Shown here: positions 1,332 to 63,507 of the stretch, in pieces | Layout of the letters: each line of letters begins with the position of its first letter | How positions within the stretch are numbered: position 1 is the first letter of the stretch | Assembly: GCF_041886205.1 (NCBI RefSeq) | Contig: NZ_CP169029.1 | DNA: 64,000 bases | Reading direction: 5' to 3' (one strand) | Source: Escherichia coli | GTDB taxonomy: Bacteria; Pseudomonadota; Gammaproteobacteria; Enterobacterales; Enterobacteriaceae | Made by a program: the position numbers and the translations under genes | Notes under the pieces: generated by a model | The model's input: only the letters and a program-made list of their open reading frames with translations | What the model was told of the DNA's origin: nothing | Databases searched by the model: none

Positions 1332-4573
<3,242 letters not shown>

Positions 4574-4611
4574 TATTCAATAAAAATAATCAGAACATCA
4601 AAGGTGCAACT

Positions 4612-5877
4612 ATGAGAAAAATAGTGGCCATGGCCGTTATTTGCCTGACGGCTGCCTCTGGCCTTACCTCTGCTTATGCGGCGCAACTGGCTGACGATGA
4701 AGCGGGACTACGCATCAGACTGAAAAACGAATTGCGCAGGGCTGATAAGCCCAGTGCTGGCGCGGGAAGAGATATTTACGCATGGGTACAGGGAGGATTG
4801 CTCGATTTCAATAGTGGTTATTATTCCAATATTATTGGCGTTGAAGGCGGAGCGTATTATGTTTATAAATTAGGTGCTCGTGCTGATATGAGTACCCGTT
4901 GGTATCTTGATGGTGATAAAAGTTTTGGCTTTGCCCTGGGGGCAGTAAAAATAAAACCCAGTGAAAATAGCCTGCTTAAATTAGGTCGCTTCGGGACGGA
5001 TTATAGTTATGGTAGCTTACCTTATCGTATTCCGTTAATGGCTGGCAGTTCGCAACGTACACTACCGACAGTTTCTGAAGGCGCATTAGGTTATTGGGCT
5101 TTAACGCCAAATATTGATCTGTGGGGAATGTGGCGTACACGAGTATTTTTATGGACCGATTCAACAACCGGTATTCGTGATGAAGGGGTGTATAACAGCC
5201 AGACGGGAAAATACGATAAACATCGCGCACGTTCTTTTTTAGCCGCCAGTTGGCATGATGATACCAGTCGCTATTCTCTGGGGGCATCGGTACAGAAAGA
5301 TGTTTCCAATCAGATACAAAGTATTCTCGAGAAAAGCATACCGCTCGACCCGAATTATACGTTGAAAGGGGAGTTGCTCGGCTTTTACGCGCAGCTCGAA
5401 GGTTTAAGTCGTAATACCAGCCAGCCCAATGAAACGGCGTTGGTTAGTGGACAATTGACCTGGAATGCGCCGTGGGGAAGCGTATTTGGCAGTGGTGGTT
5501 ATTTGCGCCATGCAATGAATGGTGCCGTGGTGGATACCGACATTGGCTATCCCTTTTCATTAAGTCTTGATCGTAACCGTGAAGGAATGCAGTCCTGGCA
5601 ATTGGGCGTCAACTATCGTTTAACTCCGCAATTTACACTGACATTTGCACCGATTGTGACTCGCGGCTATGAATCCAGTAAACGAGATGTGCGGATTGAA
5701 GGCGCGGGTATCTTAGGTGGTATGAACTATCGGGTCAGCGAAGGGCCGTTACAAGGGATGAATTTCTTTCTTGCTGCCGATAAAGGGCGGGAAAAGCGCG
5801 ATGGCAGTACGCTGGGCGATCGCCTGAATTACTGGGATGTGAAAATGAGTATTCAGTATGACTTTATGCTGAAGTAA
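4612..5877 (+). CDS. uidC: outer-membrane glucuronide porin
   Basis: 421-aa ORF with a signal peptide (MRKIVAMAVICLTAASGLTSAYA) and a beta-barrel-type C-terminus ending ...YDFMLK. Third gene of the uid operon. Confidence 0.93.
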   Translation: MRKIVAMAVICLTAASGLTSAYAAQLADDEAGLRIRLKNELRRADKPSAGAGRDIYAWVQGGLLDFNSGYYSNIIGVEGGAYYVYKLGARADMSTRWYLDGDKSFGFALGAVKIKPSENSLLKLGRFGTDYSYGSLPYRIPLMAGSSQRTLPTVSEGALGYWALTPNIDLWGMWRTRVFLWTDSTTGIRDEGVYNSQTGKYDKHRARSFLAASWHDDTSRYSLGASVQKDVSNQIQSILEKSIPLDPNYTLKGELLGFYAQLEGLSRNTSQPNETALVSGQLTWNAPWGSVFGSGGYLRHAMNGAVVDTDIGYPFSLSLDRNREGMQSWQLGVNYRLTPQFTLTFAPIVTRGYESSKRDVRIEGAGILGGMNYRVSEGPLQGMNFFLAADKGREKRDGSTLGDRLNYWDVKMSIQYDFMLK

Positions 5878-46212: not shown

Positions 46213-47935
46213 TTAAGAATCAGCCTGACTCGGGATCAGTTTTTGCCAGATAGCTGAAACGTATTTTGCCTGGTAACGGGCGTCATCAAGTGCATTATGG
46301 CGCTCACCTTCGAATGGAATAGCCGTTCTGGCATCGAAGTCTATGGCTTTCCCCAGCTCAACGATTGTGCGTACATCGCGATCGTTGTAGTAACGCCACG
46401 GGCAGGGGATCCCCTGCCGTTCGTATGAACGGCGCAAAATCGTGTTGTCGAAGTTGGCTCCATTTCCCCAGACATGAACAAAAAATTCACCGGAGTTTTC
46501 GTCGATAAATTCCCGCAATTGTAACAGTGCATCATCTAACGGGATTTCATCGGTCATAATGGCAGATTGCGCTTCGCGTGATTGTTTAAGCCACCATTTA
46601 ATGGTGTCCCGATCAATGACTCCGCCAGCAGTTTCCAGATCGATAGTCTTACTAAATTCCGGTCCCATATCTCCGGTTTGCGGATCGAAAAATATTGCAC
46701 CTATTGAGATAATCGGGGCATCGGGATTTTTTCCCATGGTTTCAAGGTCGATCATCAGATGAATCCCCGCTCTGCTGGTGGATGTGAGATTATGATGACC
46801 GTTTGCCTTAATTAAGGGATCTGACGCCTCGCCAGTTTCACTATCGCTGGCATGATGCTGATTGCCGCCAGTGTTCTCCTTGTGCTGATGCGCAGTGCCT
46901 TCTATTTCCTCCGGATCATTTTCCTGAACTTCAGGCTGATTCTCTCCATCGAATATTTCCTGGTATGTTGCGTCACCCATCACCGCACCACAATCAGGGC
47001 AGTTGCCGCCACCGCTCTGACCGCAGGCGGTGCAGATCTTTTCCGGTTCCTGTTGCACTACTGGTTCAGGTTGTTTCGTTTCTGGCTCGTTTTGTTGCAT
47101 ATTTGGGCTGTTTTGTTCCGCTTTCTGGTCGTTCTGTTCCGTTTCTTGCTGGTTCTGGTTCACAGAATCGCGGGTCTGGATCCCCTTAATCCATTTCGGA
47201 TCATTCGGGTCGCTAATCCCTTCAACAAATTCACCACGTGATACTGCAAGCAGTTCATCGGCGTCAGGCTGGCTGATATTGGCTGCCTGCATAATTTTGT
47301 TTACTTCGTCAGCGGTAACTTTTACTGACCCTGGTTGTGCGGTCGTGTCAGATGCACCAGTATTTTGTTGTGAACCTGAGTATGTACCGTTTTTGCGGGC
47401 GAAATATTCTTCTTTCGTGATTTCAGTAGCCCCAGCAGACAGCGCCTTATCCAGACCAGAAAGTTTATTTGCGCGACCGTATTTTTCGCCATCCTTGTCG
47501 GTGAAGAGGAAGTAGAACGGCCCCTCACGTTCTACAGATGGTTCGACTTCCACTTTGCATTCGGTTTTTTCGTTGTCTGGAATTGCCGTTTCCACTGCAT
47601 CAGTTTCTGGTACTGGCGACGAGAGAGTATCAGTTGCGCTCTGATTTGTTCCTTCATCTTCAAACACGCCCTTTGTAGTCAGGTATTCAGTAATGTATTT
47701 GTTCAGTGCCACAGGGTCTTTGTGAATGTCGATCGGACGTTCACGGACAAGGCCAAAAATAGTCTGGCGGTCGTAGCGAAGGGCATCAGGCTGTTTGCGC
47801 ATTGATGCCGAGATACGCTTCCAGTCTTCGCGGTCGTTGTCGATAACTTCATTTTTTGCCCAGCGATGGATGCTGCCGTCAATGTTTCCGGCATCCACAT
47901 CACCAGGCCAGAGAGCGTAGGCCAGTTCGTCATCC
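46213..47935 (-). pseudogene. distal (C-terminal) part of a large early-region exonuclease gene split by IS629
   Basis: C-terminal DEDDh 3'-5' exonuclease motifs (LMIDLETMG, WGNGANFDNTIL, HNALDDARYQ). The middle is acidic and Q-rich and contains a CTACG...CPDCG zinc ribbon. The reading frame stays open upstream of the GTG called by the track, right up to the IS boundary. Confidence 0.85.
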
Positions 47936-47989: not shown

Positions 47990-48316
47990 ATGACTAAAAA
48001 TACTCGTTTTTCCCCCGAAGTCCGTCAACGGGCAGTCCGTATGGTTCTGGAAAGTCAGAGCGAATATGACTCACAATGGGCGACAATTTGTTCCATTGCT
48101 CCAAAGATTGGCTGTACGCCGGAGACTCTGCGTGTCTGGGTTCGCCAGCATGAGCGGGATACCGGGGGCGGTGATGGAGGGCTCACCACCGCTGAACGTC
48201 AGCGTCTGAAAGAGCTGGAACGTGAAAATCGTGAACTGCGCCGCAGTAACGATATCCTTCGCCAGGCTTCCGCTTATTTTGCGAAGGCGGAGTTCGACCG
48301 CCTCTGGAAAAAATGA
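47990..48316 (+). CDS. IS3-family transposase OrfA (HTH)
   Basis: 108-aa [58 protein letters not shown]..., which matches IS629 OrfA as I recall it. Confidence 0.93.
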
Positions 48317-49203
48317 TGCCACTGCTGGATAAGCTGCGTGAGCAGTACGGGGTCGGACCGCTATGCAGCGAACTGCATATTGCCCCGTCAACGTATTACC
48401 ACTGTCAGCAACAGCGACATCATCCGGATAAACGCAGTGCCCGTGCGCAGCGCGATGACTGGCTGAAGAAAGAGATACAGCGCGTATACGATGAAAATCA
48501 CAAGGTATACGGTGTGCGTAAAGTCTGGCGTCAGTTGTTACGGGAAGGTATCAGAGTGGCCAGATGCACTGTGGCACGTCTCATGGCGGTTATGGGACTT
48601 GCCGGTGTTCTCCGGGGTAAAAAGGTCCGTACGACCATCAGCCGGAAAGCCGTTGCCGCAGGCGACCGCGTAAACCGTCAGTTCGTGGCAGAACGACCTG
48701 ACCAGCTGTGGGTGGCTGATTTTACTTACGTCAGCACATGGCGGGGCTTCGTCTATGTGGCGTTCATCATTGATGTGTTTGCCGGATACATCGTGGGGTG
48801 GCGGGTCTCATCGTCCATGGAAACGACATTCGTGCTGGATGCACTGGAGCAGGCGTTATGGGCCCGTCGACCGTCCGGCACGGTCCATCACAGTGATAAA
48901 GGTTCTCAGTATGTATCGCTGGCCTACACACAGCGGCTTAAGGAAGCCGGATTACTGGCATCAACAGGAAGTACAGGCGACTCGTATGACAACGCGATGG
49001 CGGAGAGCATCAATGGTCTTTACAAAGCGGAGGTAATACACCGTAAGAGCTGGAAAAACCGTGCAGAAGTGGAACTGGCCACACTCACGTGGGTGGACTG
49101 GTATAACAATCGACGATTGCTGGAAAGGCTGGGCCATACTCCTCCGGCAGAAGCAGAAAAAGCTTATTATGCTTCCATCGGAAACGATGATCTGGCAGCC
49201 TGA
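48313..49203 (+). CDS. IS3-family transposase OrfB (DDE integrase domain)
   Basis: 296-aa ORF with rve-type motifs (WVADFTYV..., [15 protein letters not shown]). It overlaps orfA at GGAAAAAATGATG, consistent with a programmed -1 frameshift. Confidence 0.93.
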
Positions 49204-53828: not shown

Positions 53829-54223
53829 CGAGATTAAAGTGCATTAGTTCAGATGCAAATTGACATTTTGTGGCACAGGGTAGAGCTAGCGTGGTTGTCC
53901 GCTTTGTGCCAACAGCGGACATTATGGAAGGTCAGAGTTAAAGATTAAAATGGGATGCTGTGTGTTTTCTCCAGGTTTTGCTCTATACCTTTCGGGATAC
54001 TCCACCGACAGAATACGAAAATCAACATTATCAACGGCTCGAAGTGTCTAGATTATCCATGGCAATTCATGGGAAATCCCATCCAACGGCTTATGCTTCA
54101 TGTTGCTTTTTGAGATCGCTTCTAGCATAGCTCCACTCAATAATGTTGTCGGGTCGTTGCTGATCGAAAAGGATACGGGATTCAATACCATTACCTAAAA
54201 AGCTGGTACCGGAACTCGGGCTG

Positions 54224-55228
54224 GTGGTCGTTAAGCCGGGCCGTGAATCCATGCCGGTATTCCACAATACCCGGGTACTGGTGGAGCCGGAACCGAAAAG
54301 CATGCGTAATCTGCCGTCCGGGGTCGTTCCTGCCGTTCGCCAGCCGCTGGTGGAAGACAAAACATTGCTGCCGTTTTTCAGTAACGCACGGGTAATTCGT
54401 GCTGCTGGTGGTGCTGGTGCATTGTCTGACTGGCTGTTGCGCCATATTAAATCCTGCCAGTGGCCACACGGCGATTATCATCACAGCGAAACCGTTATTC
54501 ACCGATATGGTACCGGCGCAATGGTGTTGTGCTGGCACTGCGACAACCAGCTGCGTGACCAGACATCCGAATCACTCGAGCAACTTGCTCATCAAAACCT
54601 GTCAGCATGGATGATTGACGTCATCGGTCACGCAATAAGCGGTACGCAGGAGCGTGAATTATCTCTGGCTGAATTATCCTGGTGGGCGGTCCGCAATCAG
54701 CTGGCGGACGCGCTACCGGAAGCGGTATTACGTCGCTCGCTGGGATTACCAGCGGAAAAAATCTGCTCGGTGTACCGCGAAAGCGACATCGTACCGGGAG
54801 AGCAGACCGCCACCAGCATATTGAAACAGCGCACAAAAAATCTTGCACCGTTGCCTCACGCCCACCAGCAACAAAACCCATCACAGGAAAAGACGGTGGT
54901 AAGCATCACCGTTGATCCAGAGTCTCCGGAATCTTTCATGAAGCTGCCTAAACGTCACCGGTGGGTTAAGGAGAAATACACACGCTGGGTTAAGACACAG
55001 CCGTGTGCTTGCTGCGGTATGCCAGCCGACGATCCGCATCATCTGATTGGTCACGGGCAGGGCGGAATGGGAACCAAAGCACATGATCTCTTTGTTTTGC
55101 CTTTGTGCAGAAAGCATCACGACGAGTTGCATACGGATACCGTGGCATTTGAAGAGAAGTATGGCTCCCAACTGGAGCTGATTTTTCGATTTATCGATCG
55201 CGCGCTGGCAATTGGTGTGCTGGCCTAA
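54224..55228 (+). CDS. YdfU-like DUF968 protein with a C-terminal HNH-like Cys/His motif
   Basis: 334 aa from GTG, or 325 aa from ATG 54251. The C-terminus reads [43 protein letters not shown]. It lies immediately upstream of Q, as ydfU does in Qin. Confidence 0.75.
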
Positions 55229-55245
55229 TTTTGTGGAGTAAGTTG

Positions 55246-55623
55246 ATGCGTGATATTCAGATGGTTCTTGAGCGTTGGGGGGCATGGGCGGCTAATAATC
55301 ATGAAGATGTGACCTGGTCGTCCATTGCCGCCGGTTTTAAGGGATTAATTCCTTCAAAAGTAAGATCTCGTCCGCAATGCTGTGACGATGACGCGATGAT
55401 CATTTGTGAATGTATGGCTCGCCTGAAAAAAAACAACAGCGATTTACATGATTTATTGGTGGACTATTATGTCGGCGGCATGACTTTTATGGCGCTTGCA
55501 CATAAGCATGGGCGATCTGATTGTTGGGTTGGCAGGATGCTCCAGAAAGCTGAGGGCGTAGTGGAGGGCATGCTGATGGTGTTGGATCTCCGATTGGAGA
55601 TGGATGCTGATTGTTCGAAATAA
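55246..55623 (+). CDS. late-gene antiterminator Q (QuuD/QuuQ type)
   Basis: I place the start at [35 protein letters not shown] (125 aa), preceded by GGAG. It matches DLP12 QuuD as I recall it. Confidence 0.88.
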
Positions 55624-55635
55624 TTAAAGGAAAAG

Positions 55636-55664
55636 TTGCTGTCTGATTTTCATTAGTCTAACAT
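55636..55664 (+). promoter_or_regulatory. Candidate late promoter PR' just downstream of Q
   Basis: TTGCTG (55636-55641), a 17-nt spacer, then TAACAT (55659-55664). The position is as expected for a Q-utilisation promoter. Confidence 0.35.
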
Positions 55665-55723
55665 TTTAAATGTTGGAATCGCAACGTAGTTATTATCATA
55701 TAACAGCTTGTTTCCTGATTTAG

Positions 55724-55750
55724 CCAGCCTCCCCAAAGGCTGGTTTTTTT
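55724..55750 (+). terminator. Intrinsic terminator (tR'-like); it also abuts the 3' end of the convergent lipocalin gene
   Basis: Stem CCAGCCT/AGGCTGG with loop CCCCAA and a T7 run. Confidence 0.8.
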
Positions 55751-55778
55751 CTAATAAGTATCATTTCGGGTGGGGATT

Positions 55779-56303
55779 TTATTGTTTAACCCATAATAGT
55801 TCATTGACATTGAATCCCAACTTTTGAGCGGTACGCACATAGTCTGCTTTTACATTATCTGGAATAGTTTGGGTCCTTGCCAGAATCCATAGGTATTCTC
55901 TGTTCGGACCACTGACAAGAGCATACTTATACTCATCATCCAGTTTGATTACATTATAGCCACCATAGAAGGGGCCAAAAAACGAAACTTTCAACGCTGC
56001 AGTTTTAGTATCTCCAGTAAAGTATGCTTTACCTTCGCTCTCGCTCCATTTGTTTTTCGTTGGATCGTATCCACGGTTAAGTACGCGAATCCCTCCGTCG
56101 TTCCGTTTTTCATAAGTAGCGCTGACCTGTTCCAGACCACGTTCGAACCAGTTCTCGAGGCGAGCTATTTCATACCATTTTCCGAGGTAGCGGTTGGCGT
56201 CAAAATTTGTAATCGGCTGCACACCTTTAGGTGGTGTCGGGGCCTTACATGCTATAAGAGTGAAAGAGAGTGCAATGCCAGTCAACACAGGCCATAACTT
56301 CAT
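55779..56303 (-). CDS. bacterial lipocalin (Blc-like) outer-membrane lipoprotein
   Basis: 174-aa ORF with lipobox LIAC. Motifs NFDANRYLGKWYEIARLENWFERG...GKAYFTG...ALKVSFFGPFYGGYNVI...YLWILART align closely with E. coli Blc as I recall it. Confidence 0.88.
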   Translation of the reverse strand: MKLWPVLTGIALSFTLIACKAPTPPKGVQPITNFDANRYLGKWYEIARLENWFERGLEQVSATYEKRNDGGIRVLNRGYDPTKNKWSESEGKAYFTGDTKTAALKVSFFGPFYGGYNVIKLDDEYKYALVSGPNREYLWILARTQTIPDNVKADYVRTAQKLGFNVNELLWVKQ

Positions 56304-56495
56304 AATAAATCCTGTACTTTTGATAGTTGAGAGTAAGTATGAAAGATAGATGAGTACGACCGATCACTTAAAGAACTTTCCTACTATATTAGGAATAGTC
56401 AATAACAGAAAAATTGTCAGTGATGAAGCCAGAAAGGCAATTTAGTCCGTGCACTACAAAGTTTATGTGTTAATGAATTAGTCAAGGGGGAGGAA

Positions 56496-57455
56496 ATGAT
56501 AAAAAAACCTGTGATTGGGATCAGCGGTTGTTTGGGCGGTTCTGCTGTTCGTTTTGATGGTGGTCACAAAAGAGATGACTTTTTAATGGACAAATTAGTG
56601 GAATGGGTAACATTCAGACCAGTATGTCCGGAAATGGCTATAGGGCTGCCAGTTCCGCGTCCTGCTCTACGACTTGTGCGCTCGAAGCAAGGAAATATAC
56701 GGATGTGTTTCAGCCACGACCAGAATGAGGATGTGACAGAGAGAATGACAGAGTTTAGTCGTTCTTATATGGACAAATTAAAGGATGTATCGGGGTTTGT
56801 GGTTTGTGCTAAATCTCCCAGCTGTGGCATGGAGCGCGTGCGTGTCTATGATGAAAATGGTAATCGAGGTCGTAAAGATGGAGTGGGACTATTTACGAGC
56901 ACTTTGATGGAAAAGTTTTCCTGGCTACCGGTTGAAGAGGATGGGCGATTACATGATCCAGTGCTTCGTGAGAATTTTATTGAAAGAGTTTTTGCTTTGC
57001 ATGAGCTCAATCACCTTTACAAGGAGAAATTATCAAGAAGAGAGTTATTAGCTTTTCATAGTCGTTATAAGCTTCAGTTGTTGGCGCATAGCCAGGCAGG
57101 CTATAAAGATATGGGACCATTTGTGGCTGCAATACACGAGTGGGCGGACCTTGAATCATACTTTGAGGTGTATCGTGATAATCTGATGGCGATTCTCAGA
57201 AAACCAGCATCACGTAAAAATCACACGAATGTGCTGATGCATATACAGGGGTATTTTAGTAATTACTTAAGTACACGCCAGCGTAAAGAGTTGAGCGAGG
57301 TTATACTTAACTATCGCTTTGGCACATTGCCTCTTCTTGCGCCGTTGACTCTGCTGAAGCATTATCTGGGTGAGTATCCTAATGATTACTTGCTTACACA
57401 GAATTACTTCGATCCCTATCCGGAAGAACTGGCTCTAAGACTGATGGTGAATTAA
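56496..57455 (+). CDS. DUF523 (TudS-like Fe-S) - DUF1722 (YbgA-like) fusion protein
   Basis: 319 aa. The N-terminal half has GISGCLGG, VCPE and SPSCG Cys motifs typical of DUF523. The C-terminal half (FHSRYKLQLLAHSQAGYKDMGPFVA...) resembles YbgA. SD GGGGGAGG lies upstream. Confidence 0.75.
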   Translation: MIKKPVIGISGCLGGSAVRFDGGHKRDDFLMDKLVEWVTFRPVCPEMAIGLPVPRPALRLVRSKQGNIRMCFSHDQNEDVTERMTEFSRSYMDKLKDVSGFVVCAKSPSCGMERVRVYDENGNRGRKDGVGLFTSTLMEKFSWLPVEEDGRLHDPVLRENFIERVFALHELNHLYKEKLSRRELLAFHSRYKLQLLAHSQAGYKDMGPFVAAIHEWADLESYFEVYRDNLMAILRKPASRKNHTNVLMHIQGYFSNYLSTRQRKELSEVILNYRFGTLPLLAPLTLLKHYLGEYPNDYLLTQNYFDPYPEELALRLMVN

Positions 57456-57861
57456 CTGTATGCGATATCATCTGAAAGTGATGAGTTCCTGTATGCAGGA
57501 TATTTACAATCGTAAAAACTACGCTATGATGCTCATAGTGTCAGTTTTTATAAAAATCCTGTTCACGCTAAAGAAAACATTGAGATGCAATTTAATGTTG
57601 GTAAACATACCAACCCCAAAAGATTTTATTCAATCTGTTTTTATATGAAGATATTTCAAGTGAATATAAAGAGCATATAATATTATTATTGCACGCAGCT
57701 ATTATAATATAACAGATTAGTTTAATGATTTGTTTTTTGTGAGTTAAACACATGGTTTTATAGTTGTGATGCAATGAGATTTTCCTTATTGTTGAACTGG
57801 CGAATATTGATTTTCCACCTATACTTACCTGGTGTAACCCCAATGATATCAGGTGGATAAT

Positions 57862-58575
57862 ATGTCATACATATGTTCTATCATTTTGGTGTTGAACTCG
57901 TTTGGTGTCCGAATTGGTAAAGAAGATATTTTGTTTAAAAAAGGAAATGCTGTCCTCATTGAATACAATTTAAAAGATCTTTTTTCGTCAAATACAGATC
58001 ATCTAATGATCGTAGATGTTGAGGAGAAAACAGTTAATGATTTCTTTAAAAACTACACACTCTCACCTTTTTCTGTAAGAAGGTTTTATCCGTCATACTT
58101 GATAGTAGAATGTGAAGATTTTTCATTGTTAAAGAACTTGGTTGCATGCTTGAATTGTGATAGCAAAACCGTGGATGTAGTTAGAAATCAAATATCACTT
58201 GCATGTCTTGCTGTCTTATCTTCAGAGAAAATAGTGCAAAGTTTTTTGTTCGGAAGTCTTAATAGCTTAGGTTGTAAAGTTAAGGCTATTATTCACTCGG
58301 ATATCTCAGCGTCATGGAGACTTTGTGATATATCTTCAAGATTATATATGAGCGAGAGTTTGTTAAAAAGAAAATTAAAAGACGAAGGATTATCGTTTAG
58401 TAAATTAATTCTTGAAGAACGAATGATGATGGCGCAAAGATTATTGATCTACAGTAACCATACTGTCGGCAAGGTGGCGGGAATATGCGGGTATGACAAT
58501 GCATCATATTTTGTAAGTGTTTTTAGAGGATATTTTGGTGTGCCTCCGCACCAATATTTATCAAGATTTTCTTAG
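57862..58575 (+). CDS. AraC/XylS-family regulator of the AppY/EnvY/GadX type
   Basis: 237 aa from ATG (the track uses GTG 57853). The N-terminus MSYICSIILVLNSFGVRIGKEDILFKKGNAV parallels AppY MDYVCSVVFICQSF... The C-terminal double HTH reads ...GYDNASYFVSVFRGYFGVPPHQY. Confidence 0.85.
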   Translation: MSYICSIILVLNSFGVRIGKEDILFKKGNAVLIEYNLKDLFSSNTDHLMIVDVEEKTVNDFFKNYTLSPFSVRRFYPSYLIVECEDFSLLKNLVACLNCDSKTVDVVRNQISLACLAVLSSEKIVQSFLFGSLNSLGCKVKAIIHSDISASWRLCDISSRLYMSESLLKRKLKDEGLSFSKLILEERMMMAQRLLIYSNHTVGKVAGICGYDNASYFVSVFRGYFGVPPHQYLSRFS

Positions 58576-58643
58576 AAGATATGATGTGATGGCATTTTAT
58601 AAAGTTATTTTTTGAAGTGTAAGATTATACGATATTTTTAGCT

Positions 58644-58675
58644 ACGCCAGAATAATTGCTGGCGTTTTTCTTTTT
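58644..58675 (+). terminator. Intrinsic terminator closing the cargo block, about 90 nt before the holin start
   Basis: Stem ACGCCAG/CTGGCGT with an 8-nt loop, followed by TTTTTCTTTTT. Confidence 0.75.
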
Positions 58676-58765
58676 GAATAGATGTTCGGGCCTTACGCTA
58701 ATGTAACTTCTTTCCTTCTTCGAACCAAACCGTGTACACCATCCGTTATCTGCGGAGGTGAGGCT

Positions 58766-58981
58766 ATGAAATCCATGGATAAGTTAACAACGGGCATCGC
58801 CTACAGCACCTCTGCAGGCAGTGCTGGCTACTGGTTTTTACAGTTGCTCGATAAAGTCACGCCCTCACAGTGGGCGGCAATAGGTGTATTGGGTAGTCTG
58901 GTATTTGGCATGCTGACGTATCTGACAAATCTTTATTTCAAGATTAAAGAAGACAGGCGTAAGGCTGCGAGAGGAGAGTAA
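58766..58981 (+). CDS. essQ: class II pinholin (S21/EssQ type) with an MKSM dual-start motif
   Basis: 71-aa [71 protein letters not shown], preceded by GGAGGTGAGG. The track ORF is over-extended to 58682. Confidence 0.9.
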
Positions 58982-58985
58982 TCCA

Positions 58986-59297
58986 ATGACTCAAGACTAT
59001 GAACTGGTTGTGAAAGGAGTCCGTAATTTTGAGAATAAAGTTACGGTAACTGTAGCCTTACAGGACAAAGAACGCTTTGACGGTGAAATTTTTGGCCTGG
59101 ATGTCGCCATGGACCGTGTTGAAGGAGCTGCGCTGGAGTTTTATGAGGCAGCAGCCAGAATGAGCGTCCGGCAAGTCTTCCTGGAAGTAGCAGAAAAATT
59201 GTCAGAAAAAGTTGAGTCTTATCTGCAGCATCAGTACTCCTTTAAGATTGAAAATCCTGACAATAAGCACGAGCGTCCTCATCATAAATATCTATGA
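58986..59297 (+). CDS. ydfR: YdfR-like protein inserted between holin and endolysin
   Basis: 103-aa MTQDYELVVKGVRNFENKVTVTVALQDKERFDGEIF... matches K-12 YdfR as I recall it. Confidence 0.85.
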   Translation: MTQDYELVVKGVRNFENKVTVTVALQDKERFDGEIFGLDVAMDRVEGAALEFYEAAARMSVRQVFLEVAEKLSEKVESYLQHQYSFKIENPDNKHERPHHKYL

Positions 59298-59823
59298 ACA
59301 CAAAAATCAGATACGGCCTGTCGGCTGCCGTTCTGGCGCTGATTGGTGCTGGCGCATCTGCTCCTCAGATACTTGACCAGTTTCTGGACGAAAAAGAAGG
59401 TAACCACACAATGGCATACCGCGATGGTTCTGGCATATGGACCATCTGTCGGGGTGCCACAGTGGTGGATGGAAAAAACGTTTTTCCCAATATGAAACTG
59501 TCGAAGGAAAAATGCGACCAGGTCAACGCCATTGAGCGTGATAAGGCGCTGGCATGGGTGGAGCGCAATATAAAAGTTCCACTGACCGAGCCACAGAAAG
59601 CCGGTATCGCGTCATTCTGTCCCTATAACATTGGCCCTGGTAAGTGTTTTCCGTCGACGTTTTATAAGCGGCTTAATGCCGGTGATCGTAAAGGCGCATG
59701 CGAGGCGATTCGCTGGTGGATAAAGGACGGTGGACGTGATTGCCGCATTCGTTCAAATAATTGTTACGGTCAGGTTATTCGTCGTGACCAGGAGAGTGCA
59801 TTAACCTGCTGGGGGATAGAACA

Positions 59824-59827
<4 letters not shown>
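59294..59827 (+). CDS. SAR (signal-anchor-release) endolysin, GH24 lysozyme
   Basis: 177 aa. The N-terminal segment YGLSAAVLALIGAGASA is weakly hydrophobic. An E-x8-D-x5-T catalytic triad lies in EGNHTMAYRDGSGIWT. Overlaps the ydfR stop. It corresponds to K-12 ydfQ/rrrQ. Confidence 0.88.
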
Positions 59828-60320
<493 letters not shown>

Positions 60321-60683
60321 GGTAATATTAAATCGGAACATTTACATCGCGGAATGTAAAATTTAAATAAAAAGGACTCTTCCATGAGCCAAAATTCCTG
60401 AAATCTTAAGGGTAAGATAAAAGGTCTTAATCAGAATGACACGTTATTATTAATAAATAAAGCTATTCTTTCATTGCTGTGTTTTTCTTTACAAAAGTAA
60501 TCCTTGCTATGGGTGGTTAATCATGCGTTAATGGTGTTCTGGTTTGTTACAAATTTATCTGAAGCAGTCATTGTTATAATTTTATTATTTGTACCTCTTG
60601 AGATTTCCTTGTTGGTTTTTCTCTCTGATATTTTTTTTCGGACCATTCTGCCCAAGGGCTAATTTCTTCAAAAGGTAATAATT

Positions 60684-60896
60684 ATGTCTAACAAAATGAC
60701 TGGTTTAGTGAAATGGTTTAACCCTGAAAAAGGTTTTGGTTTCATCACGCCGAAAGATGGCAGCAAAGATGTGTTTGTCCATTTCTCAGCAATTCAGAGC
60801 AACGATTTCAAAACATTAACTGAGAATCAGGAAGTTGAATTTGGTATTGAGAACGGACCTAAAGGTCCTGCCGCTGTTCATGTAGTGGCGCTTTGA
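60684..60896 (+). CDS. cspI: cold shock protein CspI
   Basis: 70-aa [38 protein letters not shown]... with RNP1/RNP2 motifs, preceded by a long AT-rich leader typical of csp genes. Confidence 0.93.
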
Positions 60897-60906
60897 GGTA
60901 GACAAT

Positions 60907-61095
60907 ATTACAAACCATATTCACTTTAGATGCCCGTGTTGTCATGGTTCCCAGTATAGAACATCATCTTTTGATGTTTCTGACATGAATCCTTTCGGGG
61001 CAAAATGTATCTTTTGTAAATCAATGATGATTACATTTGATAATATTTCACAATACTTAAATGCCAGCCGTCTGTCGTTGGATTTAAAAAAGTGA
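60907..61095 (+). CDS. zinc-ribbon small protein (CPCC...CIFC) with no canonical start codon; possibly YnfU-like
   Basis: The frame is open from 60886 to TGA 61093-61095: ..NITNHIHFRCPCCHGSQYRTSSFDVSDMNPFGAKCIFCKSMMITFDNISQYLNASRLSLDLKK. The only plausible start is ATT 60907, 8 nt after GAGG (60895-60898). The start coordinate is uncertain. Confidence 0.5.
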   Translation: MTNHIHFRCPCCHGSQYRTSSFDVSDMNPFGAKCIFCKSMMITFDNISQYLNASRLSLDLKK

Positions 61096-61102
61096 AAATG
61101 AA

Positions 61103-61123
61103 GGCTCCTTCGGGAGTTTTTTT
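61103..61123 (+). terminator. Intrinsic terminator after the cspI/zinc-ribbon unit
   Basis: Short stem CTCC/GGAG, extendable by G-U pairs, with a TTCG tetraloop and a T7 run. Confidence 0.65.
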
Positions 61124-61167
61124 GCTTGGTATCTATTCGATGGATACTCACATACTACGGTAACATC

Positions 61168-61398
61168 ATGAAAAAAATCATAGTTTTTTTTAACTCTGAA
61201 CCAGCAGTGGTAGTGCCAGCGATGACTGGAGTTAACACCATCATGCGTGAATATCCAAATGGCGAAAAAACACACCTTACTGTAATGGCCGCAGGGTTTC
61301 CATCTCTGACCGGAGATCATAAAGTCATTTATGTAGCAGCGGATCGACATGTAACTTCAGAAGAAATTCTGGAAGCAGCAATGAGACTCTTGAATTGA
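61168..61398 (+). CDS. ynfN: YnfN-like cold-shock-associated small protein
   Basis: The C-terminal 51 aa MREYPNGEKTHLTVMAAGFPSLTGDHKVIYVAADRHVTSEEILEAAMRLLN match K-12 YnfN as I recall it (that start would be 61243). A longer form begins at MKKIIVFF (61168). The start is uncertain. Confidence 0.7.
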   Translation: MKKIIVFFNSEPAVVVPAMTGVNTIMREYPNGEKTHLTVMAAGFPSLTGDHKVIYVAADRHVTSEEILEAAMRLLN

Positions 61399-61570
61399 TT
61401 TGATTCTAATGCATTGATAATAAATGATAATCATCTTTATCTGTTTGTGTGAAATTTAGACCGTCGTATGTTGATTATTGCGATGTTTCATCTTATCTTT
61501 TATACGTTTGCTCCATATAATTGACACTACTGTGTACCAGGACAGTCATAACAGACTAAAAGAGGAAATG

Positions 61571-61744
61571 ATGAACATTGAAGAGTTAAAAACAAAAACA
61601 GAAGCAGATATTTCTGAATATATAACAAAAAAAATCATTGAGCTTAAGAAAAAGACCGGGAAAGAAGTTACCAGTATCCAGTTTACTGCACGGGAAAAAA
61701 TGACTGGTCTTGAAAGCTATGATATCAAGATTGATTTAATCTAG
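61571..61744 (+). CDS. gnsB: GnsB-like protein
   Basis: 57-aa MNIEELKTKTEADISEYITKKIIELKKKTGKEVTSIQFTAREKMTGLESYDIKIDLI, preceded by AGAGGAA. Confidence 0.85.
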   Translation: MNIEELKTKTEADISEYITKKIIELKKKTGKEVTSIQFTAREKMTGLESYDIKIDLI

Positions 61745-62907: not shown

Positions 62908-63507
62908 ATGCGTAAACTTTATGCCGCCATTTTGTCCGCAGCCATTTGTCTGGCCGTATCCGGTGCGCCTGCATGGGCATCTGAACATCAGTCCACGCTG
63001 AGCGCGGGGTATCTTCATGCCTCGACGAACGTTCCCGGCAGCGATGATCTTAACGGGATTAACGTGAAATACCGTTATGAGTTTACGGACACACTGGGGC
63101 TGGTGACGTCATTCAGCTATGCAGGAGACAAGAATCGCCAGCTTACCCGTTACAGCGATACCCGCTGGCATGAAGATTCCGTGCGTAACCGCTGGTTCAG
63201 CGTGATGGTGGGGCCGTCTGTGCGCGTGAATGAATGGTTCAGCGCGTATGCGATGGCGGGTGTGGCTTACAGCCGTGTGTCGACTTTCTCCGGGGATTAT
63301 CTCCGCGTAACTGACAACAAGGGGAAAACGCACGACGTGCTGACCGGAAGTGATGACGGTCGCCACAGCAACACGTCTCTGGCGTGGGGAGCTGGCGTGC
63401 AGTTTAACCCGACCGAATCCGTGGCCATTGATATTGCTTATGAAGGCTCCGGCAGTGGCGACTGGCGCACTGACGGTTTCATCGTGGGTGTCGGTTATAA
63501 GTTCTGA
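62908..63507 (+). CDS. lom: Lom/Ail-family outer-membrane beta-barrel protein
   Basis: 199 aa with signal peptide [24 protein letters not shown] and a C-terminal ...[10 protein letters not shown]. It matches lambda Lom as I recall it. Confidence 0.92.

Follow-up and report, generated by a model that had tools for sequence, protein, structure and literature searches.

Within a 64,000-nucleotide stretch of Escherichia coli DNA (RefSeq assembly GCF_041886205.1, contig NZ_CP169029.1; hereinafter the window), a Qin-type prophage carries between its antiterminator gene Q and its lysis genes a block of three genes coding, respectively, for a Blc-like lipocalin (blc), a protein fusing a TudS (DUF523) domain to a DUF1722 domain (rudS) and a regulator of the AraC family (araC). 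Taken together, the identities of these genes, their linkage, their origin, the selection acting on them and their prevalence indicate that the block is probably a lysogenic-conversion (moron) cassette that occupies, in linkage with one allele of Q, the slot between Q and the lysis genes of lambdoid coliphages. This slot is, in such phages, the home of the Stx toxins and other lysogenic-conversion genes. An earlier reading of the window from its letters (the original prediction) had already proposed three non-phage cargo genes of deviant composition in this slot, flanked by terminators, and the present analysis supports it: the list of open reading frames (ORFs) places the three genes, and the 192-bp gap between the divergent blc and rudS, where they had been described, hairpins followed by T-runs are recovered on both sides of the block, and Pfam searches return all the anticipated families, namely Lipocalin_2, DUF523 plus DUF1722, and HTH_18/HTH_AraC (Table 1).

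Table 1. Positions of the cassette genes and of the features that control or bound them in the window.
Feature	Position	Strand	Basis or remark
blc (Blc-like lipocalin)	55779-56303	-	174 aa, ORF list
rudS (TudS(DUF523)-DUF1722 fusion)	56496-57455	+	319 aa, ORF list
araC (PatE/Psr-family AraC regulator, by sequence)	57862-58575	+	237 aa; ORF-list start 57853/57862
Q antiterminator (QuuD/phage-82-type)	55246-55623 (alternative start 55231)	+	PF06530, 170 bits
Q-proximal non-coding region with candidate PR'/qut	55624-55721	+	sequence reading
Intrinsic terminator, tR'-like	55722-55752	+	9-bp stem, then T7 run (hairpin 55722-55745)
Divergent blc/rudS control region	56304-56495	.	192 bp, GC 0.344
rudS-araC spacer, presumed araC control region	57456-57861	+	AT-rich, GC 0.31
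Cassette-closing intrinsic terminator	58644-58675	+	7-bp stem, 5 GC pairs, T-rich tail (hairpin 58644-58665)
essQ-type class II (P21 S) holin, first late lysis gene, right slot boundary	58766-58981	+	PF04971

The block is as AT-rich as had been claimed: at 0.380, its GC fraction is the minimum among all 2930-bp windows of the 64 kb (mean 0.486, standard deviation 0.035). This dip is uneven, being shallower in blc (0.438) and rudS (0.432) than in the spacer (0.308) and araC (0.333). Combined with the bracketing terminators and a slot cargo that varies among related prophages, the deviant composition matches the layout of morons in the sense of Hendrix/Juhala, with foreign genes placed between two genes that adjoin in related phages and a terminator downstream. 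The surrounding genes are those of an ordinary lambdoid late region, with Pfam recovering a DUF968/ydfU gene followed by the PF06530 Q antiterminator 5′ of the cassette, and the P21-S-type holin, ydfR, a lysozyme and an Rz-like gene 3′ of it. Comparable foreign cargo bracketed by terminators is seen in the same position between Q/PR′/tR′ and the holin in the form of stx with tRNA genes in Stx phages, nmpC in DLP12, and cspF/cspB in Qin of E. coli K-12; the present cassette differs from these in gene content, with the Q allele covarying with the cargo.

Comparison with K-12 Qin delimits the unit of exchange. Similarity between the two prophages ends at 55228, i.e., the end of ydfU, and restarts at 58737, just before essQ, while the K-12 prophage has between these joints an unrelated 250-residue Q together with cspF and cspB. 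Thus, it is confirmed that cspF/cspB occupy the slot in Qin, and the proposed cargo swap at a fixed phage position holds as a swap; however, the swapped unit is larger than envisaged, since the position of the joints means that it includes Q itself along with PR′/tR′. Judging from these comparisons, the mobile unit comprises Q, PR′/tR′, blc, rudS, araC and the closing terminator. Collinearity with the window extends from 55204 to the end of the holin gene in the inducible phages 1H12, Lambda_2E9 and IdasGreatGrand, and the order Q–blc–rudS–araC–holin recurs in three settings: a Qin-site prophage, an att-lambda prophage whose early and lysis genes are quite different, and free phages. Twelve records of the phage database contain a RudS, and precisely these 12 contain a regulator of this clade.

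The cassette is also common in bacterial genomes, with 888 of 5426 complete E. coli genomes carrying 80% or more of the block and 1152 carrying any of it (16–21%). Three or more sequence lineages can be told apart among these copies, and between them all four genes are under purifying selection, the ratios of non-synonymous to synonymous divergence (dN/dS) ranging overall from 0.05 to 0.25 (Q, 0.05–0.11; lipocalin, 0.07–0.23; RudS, 0.11–0.24; regulator, 0.20–0.25). An alternative third gene was considered for genomes with blc and rudS only, and was rejected: such genomes have instead a diverged araC allele or a deletion associated with the insertion sequences (ISs) IS1 or IS3. Two short contigs in a ‘Candidatus Nanosynbacter’ metagenome-assembled genome also match the cassette with 92–97% identity, one spanning Q-blc-rudS and the other rudS-araC-holin (JARKOR010000151.1 and JARKOR010000135.1), and their presence there is almost certainly due to contamination of the bin with an E. 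coli prophage.

The DUF523 proteins (TudS) are Fe-S thiouracil/thiouridine desulfidases. In the middle gene of the cassette this domain (PF04463, residues 7–149, 137 bits) is joined to a DUF1722 domain (PF08349, residues 192–309, 136 bits) in one polypeptide. Proteins with this fusion received the name RudS in 2024, when they were demonstrated to be [4Fe-4S] desulfidases converting 4-thiouridine (s4U) in tRNA to uridine (Jamontas et al., NAR 2024, PMC11417400). The window protein is 92% identical over 319 residues (26 substitutions) to one member of this family, RudS_vir (phage 1H12 gp66, NC_049947), sharing with it the length of 319 residues, the TudS-DUF1722 architecture, Cys12/44/110, the neighboring genes and the slot; the two differ in that the former resides in a probably defective Qin-type prophage and the latter in an inducible phage. 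The cluster-binding and catalytic residues reported for RudS_KT, namely C17/C49/C114, E51, S111, S113 and R60 (PMC11417400), find counterparts in C12, C44, C110, E46, S107, S109 and R55, as mapped by motif position and alignment to TudS rather than by direct alignment to RudS_KT. On these grounds the middle gene is best read as a RudS, i.e., a predicted [4Fe-4S] tRNA s4U8 desulfidase. This corrects the original prediction, in which it figured as an uncharacterized fusion or thiouracil-salvage enzyme, as its 92%-identical phage orthologue has already been assayed.

All six RudS orthologues assayed decreased s4U in tRNA, with RudS_vir doing so in E. coli, and overexpression of RudS_KT, likewise in E. 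coli, shortened the growth delay after ultraviolet A (UVA) exposure from ~105 to ~60 min (PMC11417400). The salvage of thiouracil or s4UMP by a chiefly TudS-like activity on free bases or nucleotides would be an alternative role for the middle gene, which draws on the observation that RudS_vir gave the shortest lag on 4-thiouracil among the tested RudS proteins in a uracil auxotroph, and a tRNA desulfidation that was low for its protein level (PMC11417400). Yet, no RudS matched TudS in supporting growth and every one of the six acted on tRNA s4U (PMC11417400). Moreover, the DUF1722 domain, the tRNA-binding moiety, is intact in the window protein and kept under purifying selection. Hence, we regard salvage as an improbable primary function.

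The lipocalin scores 146 bits against Lipocalin_2 and 312.6 bits against the NCBIfam model of the Blc subfamily (cutoff 267), its best matches in the PDB being the Blc structures 3mbt and 1qwd. It has a lipobox (LIAC) with the lipidated cysteine at position 19 and a lysine at +2, as expected from sequence for an outer-membrane lipoprotein. While it shares the Lipocalin_2 fold, the lipobox and a Blc-subfamily score with the ampC-linked Blc of E. coli (b4149), it is just 59% identical to the K-12 protein, as opposed to 78–80% to the RudS-linked lipocalins of Enterobacter and C. sedlakii. Given this difference in identity and the different genomic context, the cassette lipocalin is a Blc paralogue of a separate, RudS-linked lineage rather than an orthologue of the ampC-adjacent blc. 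The window allele has a tryptophan at residue 52 (56148–56150; motif LEN(W)FERG), where K-12 Blc, the Enterobacter and Citrobacter homologues and the 1H12 allele have arginine (LENRFERG). The same Trp52 allele is annotated in MIN9 and BL21 (WP_000780584.1).

The third protein contains an HTH_18 domain (59.9 bits), and the MP(Y/C)ICS beginning common to all homologues puts its start at the ATG at 57862. The original prediction had grouped it with the AraC-type regulators of prophages, which is well supported, and had likened its N-terminus to AppY, which is not: the identity to AppY is 29% over the whole length and 22% over the N-terminal half, as against 48% over 237 residues to PatE of O157 (ECs0287), with 65% in the DNA-binding half and 35% in the N-terminal half. 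Full-length PsrA is 37% identical (54% in the DNA-binding half), the N-terminal half being 24–35% identical across PatE and the Psr proteins. Identities to GadW, YdeO and GadX are 33%, 28% and 27%, and the scores lie far below the NCBIfam equivalog cutoffs for YdeO (114 bits vs 348) and GadX (89.9 vs 500). A confident AlphaFold (AF2) model with a predicted local distance difference test score (pLDDT) of 85.7 has its closest folds in Rns, CsvR and ToxT over the full length and in GadX for the DNA-binding domain. The regulator is thus assignable by homology to the PatE/Psr family with an Rns/ToxT-type architecture, in which it forms a distinct, fourth clade. The family is small, amounting to 27 clusters, and is essentially restricted to E. 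coli; none of the clusters has a functional name. Lys20 (57919–57921) and Arg74 (58081–58083) hardly vary among the PatE-like proteins and are similar in number to H20/R75 of the fatty-acid pocket of Rns, as given in the titles of PDB entries.

Its counterparts in O157:H7, PatE (z0321/ECs0287) and PsrA/PsrB (z1789/z2104), are likewise prophage-borne, AT-rich, ~240 residues long and homologous over their full length. PsrA of the O157 prophage Sp4 lies, like the window regulator, downstream of Q, whereas PatE occupies a different slot, between the tail fibers and att, in Sp1, ev099 and mEp332. In Sp4 of O157 Sakai (L005:16716-19669), psrA is annotated as coding for 195 residues, and an upstream in-frame ATG extends it to a 237-residue ORF of family length. 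It has Q upstream and a CAAX protease gene alongside, followed directly by the tRNA genes ileZ, argN and argO, so that here, too, the Q-to-lysis slot combines a regulator with cargo related to translation. PatE and PsrB activate the gadE/hdeA acid-resistance promoters and repress the enterocyte effacement locus (LEE) (2024 review); these activities are known for PatE and the Psr proteins only.

The ancestry of the cassette was traced in 62 chromosomal RudS loci from Enterobacter, Leclercia, Citrobacter, Kluyvera, Klebsiella and other genera, each examined over ±6 kb. Their RudS proteins are 66–76% identical to that of the window, and 42 of them have a lipocalin gene upstream of rudS in divergent orientation. 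The full arrangement, in which an MlrA-like MerR regulator and a transthyretin/hydroxyisourate hydrolase-like protein are encoded between the divergent lipocalin gene and rudS, is present in 36; for instance, the Enterobacter/Leclercia synteny reads lipocalin (minus strand), MerR (241 residues), hydroxyisourate-hydrolase/transthyretin-like protein (136 residues) and RudS. In two Citrobacter genomes the lipocalin gene directly abuts rudS in the phage style. Salmonella ORF319 (STM1389, RudS_ST) and the Enterobacter/Leclercia locus offer a RudS of the same length with 70–76% identity and a divergent lipocalin with 78–80% identity, in comparison to which the phage cassette lacks the MerR and transthyretin-like genes and differs in having unrelated intergenic DNA, a lower GC content and an araC gene downstream. 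In the 192-bp control region of the phage form, indeed, no similarity to the chromosomal intergenic DNA of Citrobacter can be detected. The conserved chromosomal arrangement suggests a functional link between the lipocalin and RudS older than their capture by phages. A photolyase had been suspected as a neighbor of relatives of the block; ybgA does adjoin phr in K-12, but a search with K-12 Phr finds no photolyase within 6 kb of the 62 chromosomal RudS loci, and this lead therefore holds for the stand-alone ybgA only.

The regulator, on the other hand, has a history of its own. Its clade is seen within 6 kb of none of the 62 chromosomal RudS loci, the synonymous divergence of araC is about twice that of blc and rudS, and the identity to 1H12 falls from 90% to 80% at 57686/57767, within the rudS-araC spacer, marking a recombination joint. 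Accordingly, the cassette is composite: a chromosomal lipocalin–RudS pair which shed its MerR was joined to an AraC regulator from the prophage pool. The conjecture that the three genes are inherited together is hence borne out in phages, but beyond them blc and rudS form the chromosomal pair, and araC has come from elsewhere.

This composite origin bears on a reading in which the cassette is a self-contained stress module, with the AraC regulator having replaced the lost MerR in the control of blc and rudS to form one regulon for envelope, lipid or photo-oxidative stress. The two-way co-occurrence of RudS with the regulator clade in all 12 phage records is in keeping with it, as are the absence of the chromosomal MerR, the phage-specific control region and, in a regulator adjoining a lipid-binding lipocalin, a fold of the Rns/ToxT type, for which the solved members are fatty-acid binders. 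Against it stand the recombination joint between rudS and araC, the roughly doubled synonymous divergence of the latter, the gadE/hdeA promoters of the host as the known targets of the family, and a repeat search of both control regions that recovered no shared operator. Furthermore, araC has been removed by IS1 in some genomes and is frameshifted in at least 207 of the 583 genomes of a sister lineage in which blc and rudS are intact. Such frequent inactivation of the regulator alongside an intact pair weakens the proposal, and we consider it unlikely.

As for the expression of the cassette, the candidate PR′ (TTGCTG-17-TAACAT at 55637–55665) matches 7 of the 12 consensus positions and is not called by our consensus promoter scan. 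The non-coding DNA from Q to tR′ is 95% conserved across three lineages, above the level of the flanking synonymous sites, and the tR′-like hairpin is identical in four. The 92-nt RNA from 55665 to 55756, a putative short transcript from PR′ to tR′, has a predicted fold of −24.1 kcal/mol (z = −3.9) and could be a terminated-leader small RNA (sRNA) like StxS of Stx phages. An Rfam scan of 54000–60500 gave two sub-threshold matches only, one overlapping the tR′ hairpin, and no known sRNA. The prophage sRNA HnrS, which up-regulates psrA, was entertained for this slot and rejected; it sits among the late genes of other prophages. The divergent blc/rudS region is ~93% conserved among the phage lineages. 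In the spacer there are promoter-like sites at 57503–57530 and 57737–57764, at chance frequency, and a weak hairpin at 57521–57541. A repeat search in the two control regions yielded short imperfect inverted repeats and no convincing operator.

Within this framework we infer an expression logic for the cassette with two modes. In the lysogen, the two terminators would insulate the cassette, and each gene would hence be expressed from its own weak and probably H-NS-silenced promoter, with the AT-rich right third of the cassette as the likely target of such silencing. Under these conditions, the lipocalin may modify the outer membrane, RudS may lower tRNA s4U and thereby blunt the growth arrest induced by UVA, and the regulator might act on acid-resistance promoters of the host of the gadE/hdeA type, by homology with PatE and PsrB. 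In lambdoid phages the Q-modified polymerase ignores terminators, and stx is transcribed with the late operon. Likewise, upon induction of an intact phage, Q-modified polymerase starting from PR′ would pass both terminators and transcribe rudS and araC along with the lysis genes, because these two genes are co-oriented with PR′ and bracketed by intrinsic terminators only. By contrast, blc runs antisense to the late operon and must, therefore, depend on a promoter of its own.

The second mode raises the possibility, which we advance tentatively, that RudS is a lytic auxiliary gene: being expressed late in a Q-dependent manner after UV/SOS induction, it would strip s4U from host tRNAs and so spare the cell UVA cross-linking and stringent arrest, or relieve them, with the synthesis of late proteins thereby sustained. 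This is compatible with the moron interpretation and differs from it in who benefits. It is favored by the co-orientation of rudS and araC with PR′ and the lysis genes amid terminators that Q can override, the tight tie of the cassette to one Q allele, and the drop in the UVA growth delay upon RudS overexpression noted above. Also, the same slot in O157 Sp4 and Stx phages holds tRNA genes, another cargo that tunes translation. On the other side, the cassette is under purifying selection even in defective prophages without lytic growth, and the erasure of a stable tRNA modification may be too slow for a short latent period. A bolder version, and to our mind a doubtful one, would see in the cassette an enterobacterial light/oxidative-stress locus rewired by phages, in which the MerR switch gave way to Q antitermination plus a PatE-like regulator, such that the eraser is fired after UV induction. 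If true, the eraser would keep host tRNAs chargeable and phage translation running, and about a fifth of E. coli strains would harbor an ‘epitranscriptomic’ auxiliary gene of temperate phages.

Returning to the lysogenic-conversion cassette, several observations weigh against it or narrow its scope. The divergent blc/rudS region has no sigma-70-like site of ≥9/12 in the consensus scan, in which promoter-like sites were overall at chance (12 found vs 10.8 expected); own promoters for the cassette are for this reason a proposal. The DNA targets of the regulator are likewise extrapolated from relatives with 37–48% identity. RudS_vir was weaker per protein level among the tested orthologues, with some activity on 4-thiouracil (PMC11417400). 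Further, ISs often disrupt the cassette, about a third of the sampled copies carrying one, by way of independent events: an IS3 ~120 bp upstream of araC (~57740) common to many genomes of the ≥99%-identity lineage, an IS2 within blc, an IS3 at its 3′ end in another copy, and the IS1-mediated deletion of araC (~57560–58700). In the 94.7% (att-lambda) sister lineage, araC has a T8 homopolymer at codon ~40 (L085:16045-16775, L084:3606-4336; ~57975–57985 in the window), and a T8-to-T7 frameshift is present there in two unrelated strains. Exact 90-mer matches across the 583 genomes of this lineage identify T7 in at least 207 and T8 in 50, the remaining 326 matching neither form. The T7 state could reflect assembly error, switching by slippage, or clonal inheritance, many of these genomes having the look of a single clinical clone; in the window allele the tract is interrupted (GATCTTTTTTC). 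In light of the frequent frameshifts in araC and the frequent disruption by ISs, any benefit from the cassette is conditional at best.

The host prophage of this strain imposes another limit. Although it retains int, xis, repressor, replication, Q and lysis genes, an IS3-family element (HTH_Tnp_1 and rve ORFs, 47990–49203) sits in its early region by the exonuclease gene (46213–47898), and an Ail/Lom-family gene (PF06316, 399 bits, 62908–63507) follows soon after cspI (60684–60896) and gnsB (61478–61744), no packaging genes being seen between these and the Ail/Lom gene. It is thus probably defective, and on account of the early IS and the Ail/Lom gene soon after the lysis genes, the lysogen mode alone may apply in this strain.

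Decay of this kind is what one would expect if the block were functionless junk left in a dead prophage. The frequent IS insertions and deletions, the defective look of the window prophage and the E. coli B lineage, which retains blc and a rudS stub only, all point that way. However, the ORFs are intact here and conserved in hundreds of genomes, and the cassette is present in inducible, plaque-forming phages. In particular, dN/dS values of 0.05–0.25 across lineages effectively exclude this reading, to which we attach hardly any credence. In E. coli B and BL21(DE3) (NZ_CP053602.1 1585987-1593869, positions 3520-5576), Q and an intact lipocalin gene identical to that of MIN9 persist, with rudS cut by an IS3 after ~49 codons and tail-fiber fragments beyond the IS3. 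BL21(DE3) is also the host used in the published UVA assay (PMC11417400).

Parts of this system had been described before, and in that sense the possibility that the block is already characterized was partly realized. blc was catalogued in 2020 as a moron in >50% of infant-gut lambda phages (PMC6969025), RudS_vir has been assayed (PMC11417400), and the PatE and Psr proteins are established as regulators carried by prophages; we found no publication treating the blc-rudS-araC trio as a unit or reporting its prevalence. The cassette is, therefore, genuine, widespread and partly documented, being built from described families rather than representing a new type of system, and it refines annotation without overturning current understanding. 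What it adds is a corrected annotation, a fourth clade of the PatE/Psr regulators and the chromosomal ancestry of the blc-rudS pair, along with the correction of a published generalization: E. coli was stated to lack TudS/RudS homologues (PMC11417400), which is true for K-12 and not for about a fifth of the sequenced strains.

Given that RudS is one of the two types of bacterial tRNA ‘erasers’ reported so far, the prophage gene offers a native and tractable setting in which to study s4U erasure in vivo, with candidate roles in tolerance to UVA, in the stringent response and in phage induction. The strain background becomes a matter of consequence in s4U/UVA experiments, too, with K-12 having no cassette and B/BL21 a stub only. 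More generally, the cassette clearly documents how a pair of chromosomal genes was taken up by a phage and their regulator left behind, and its AraC protein extends a family of regulators known to rewire acid resistance and virulence. Beyond the lysis genes, the window has two further AT-rich islands (GC <0.36) at ~60150–61450.

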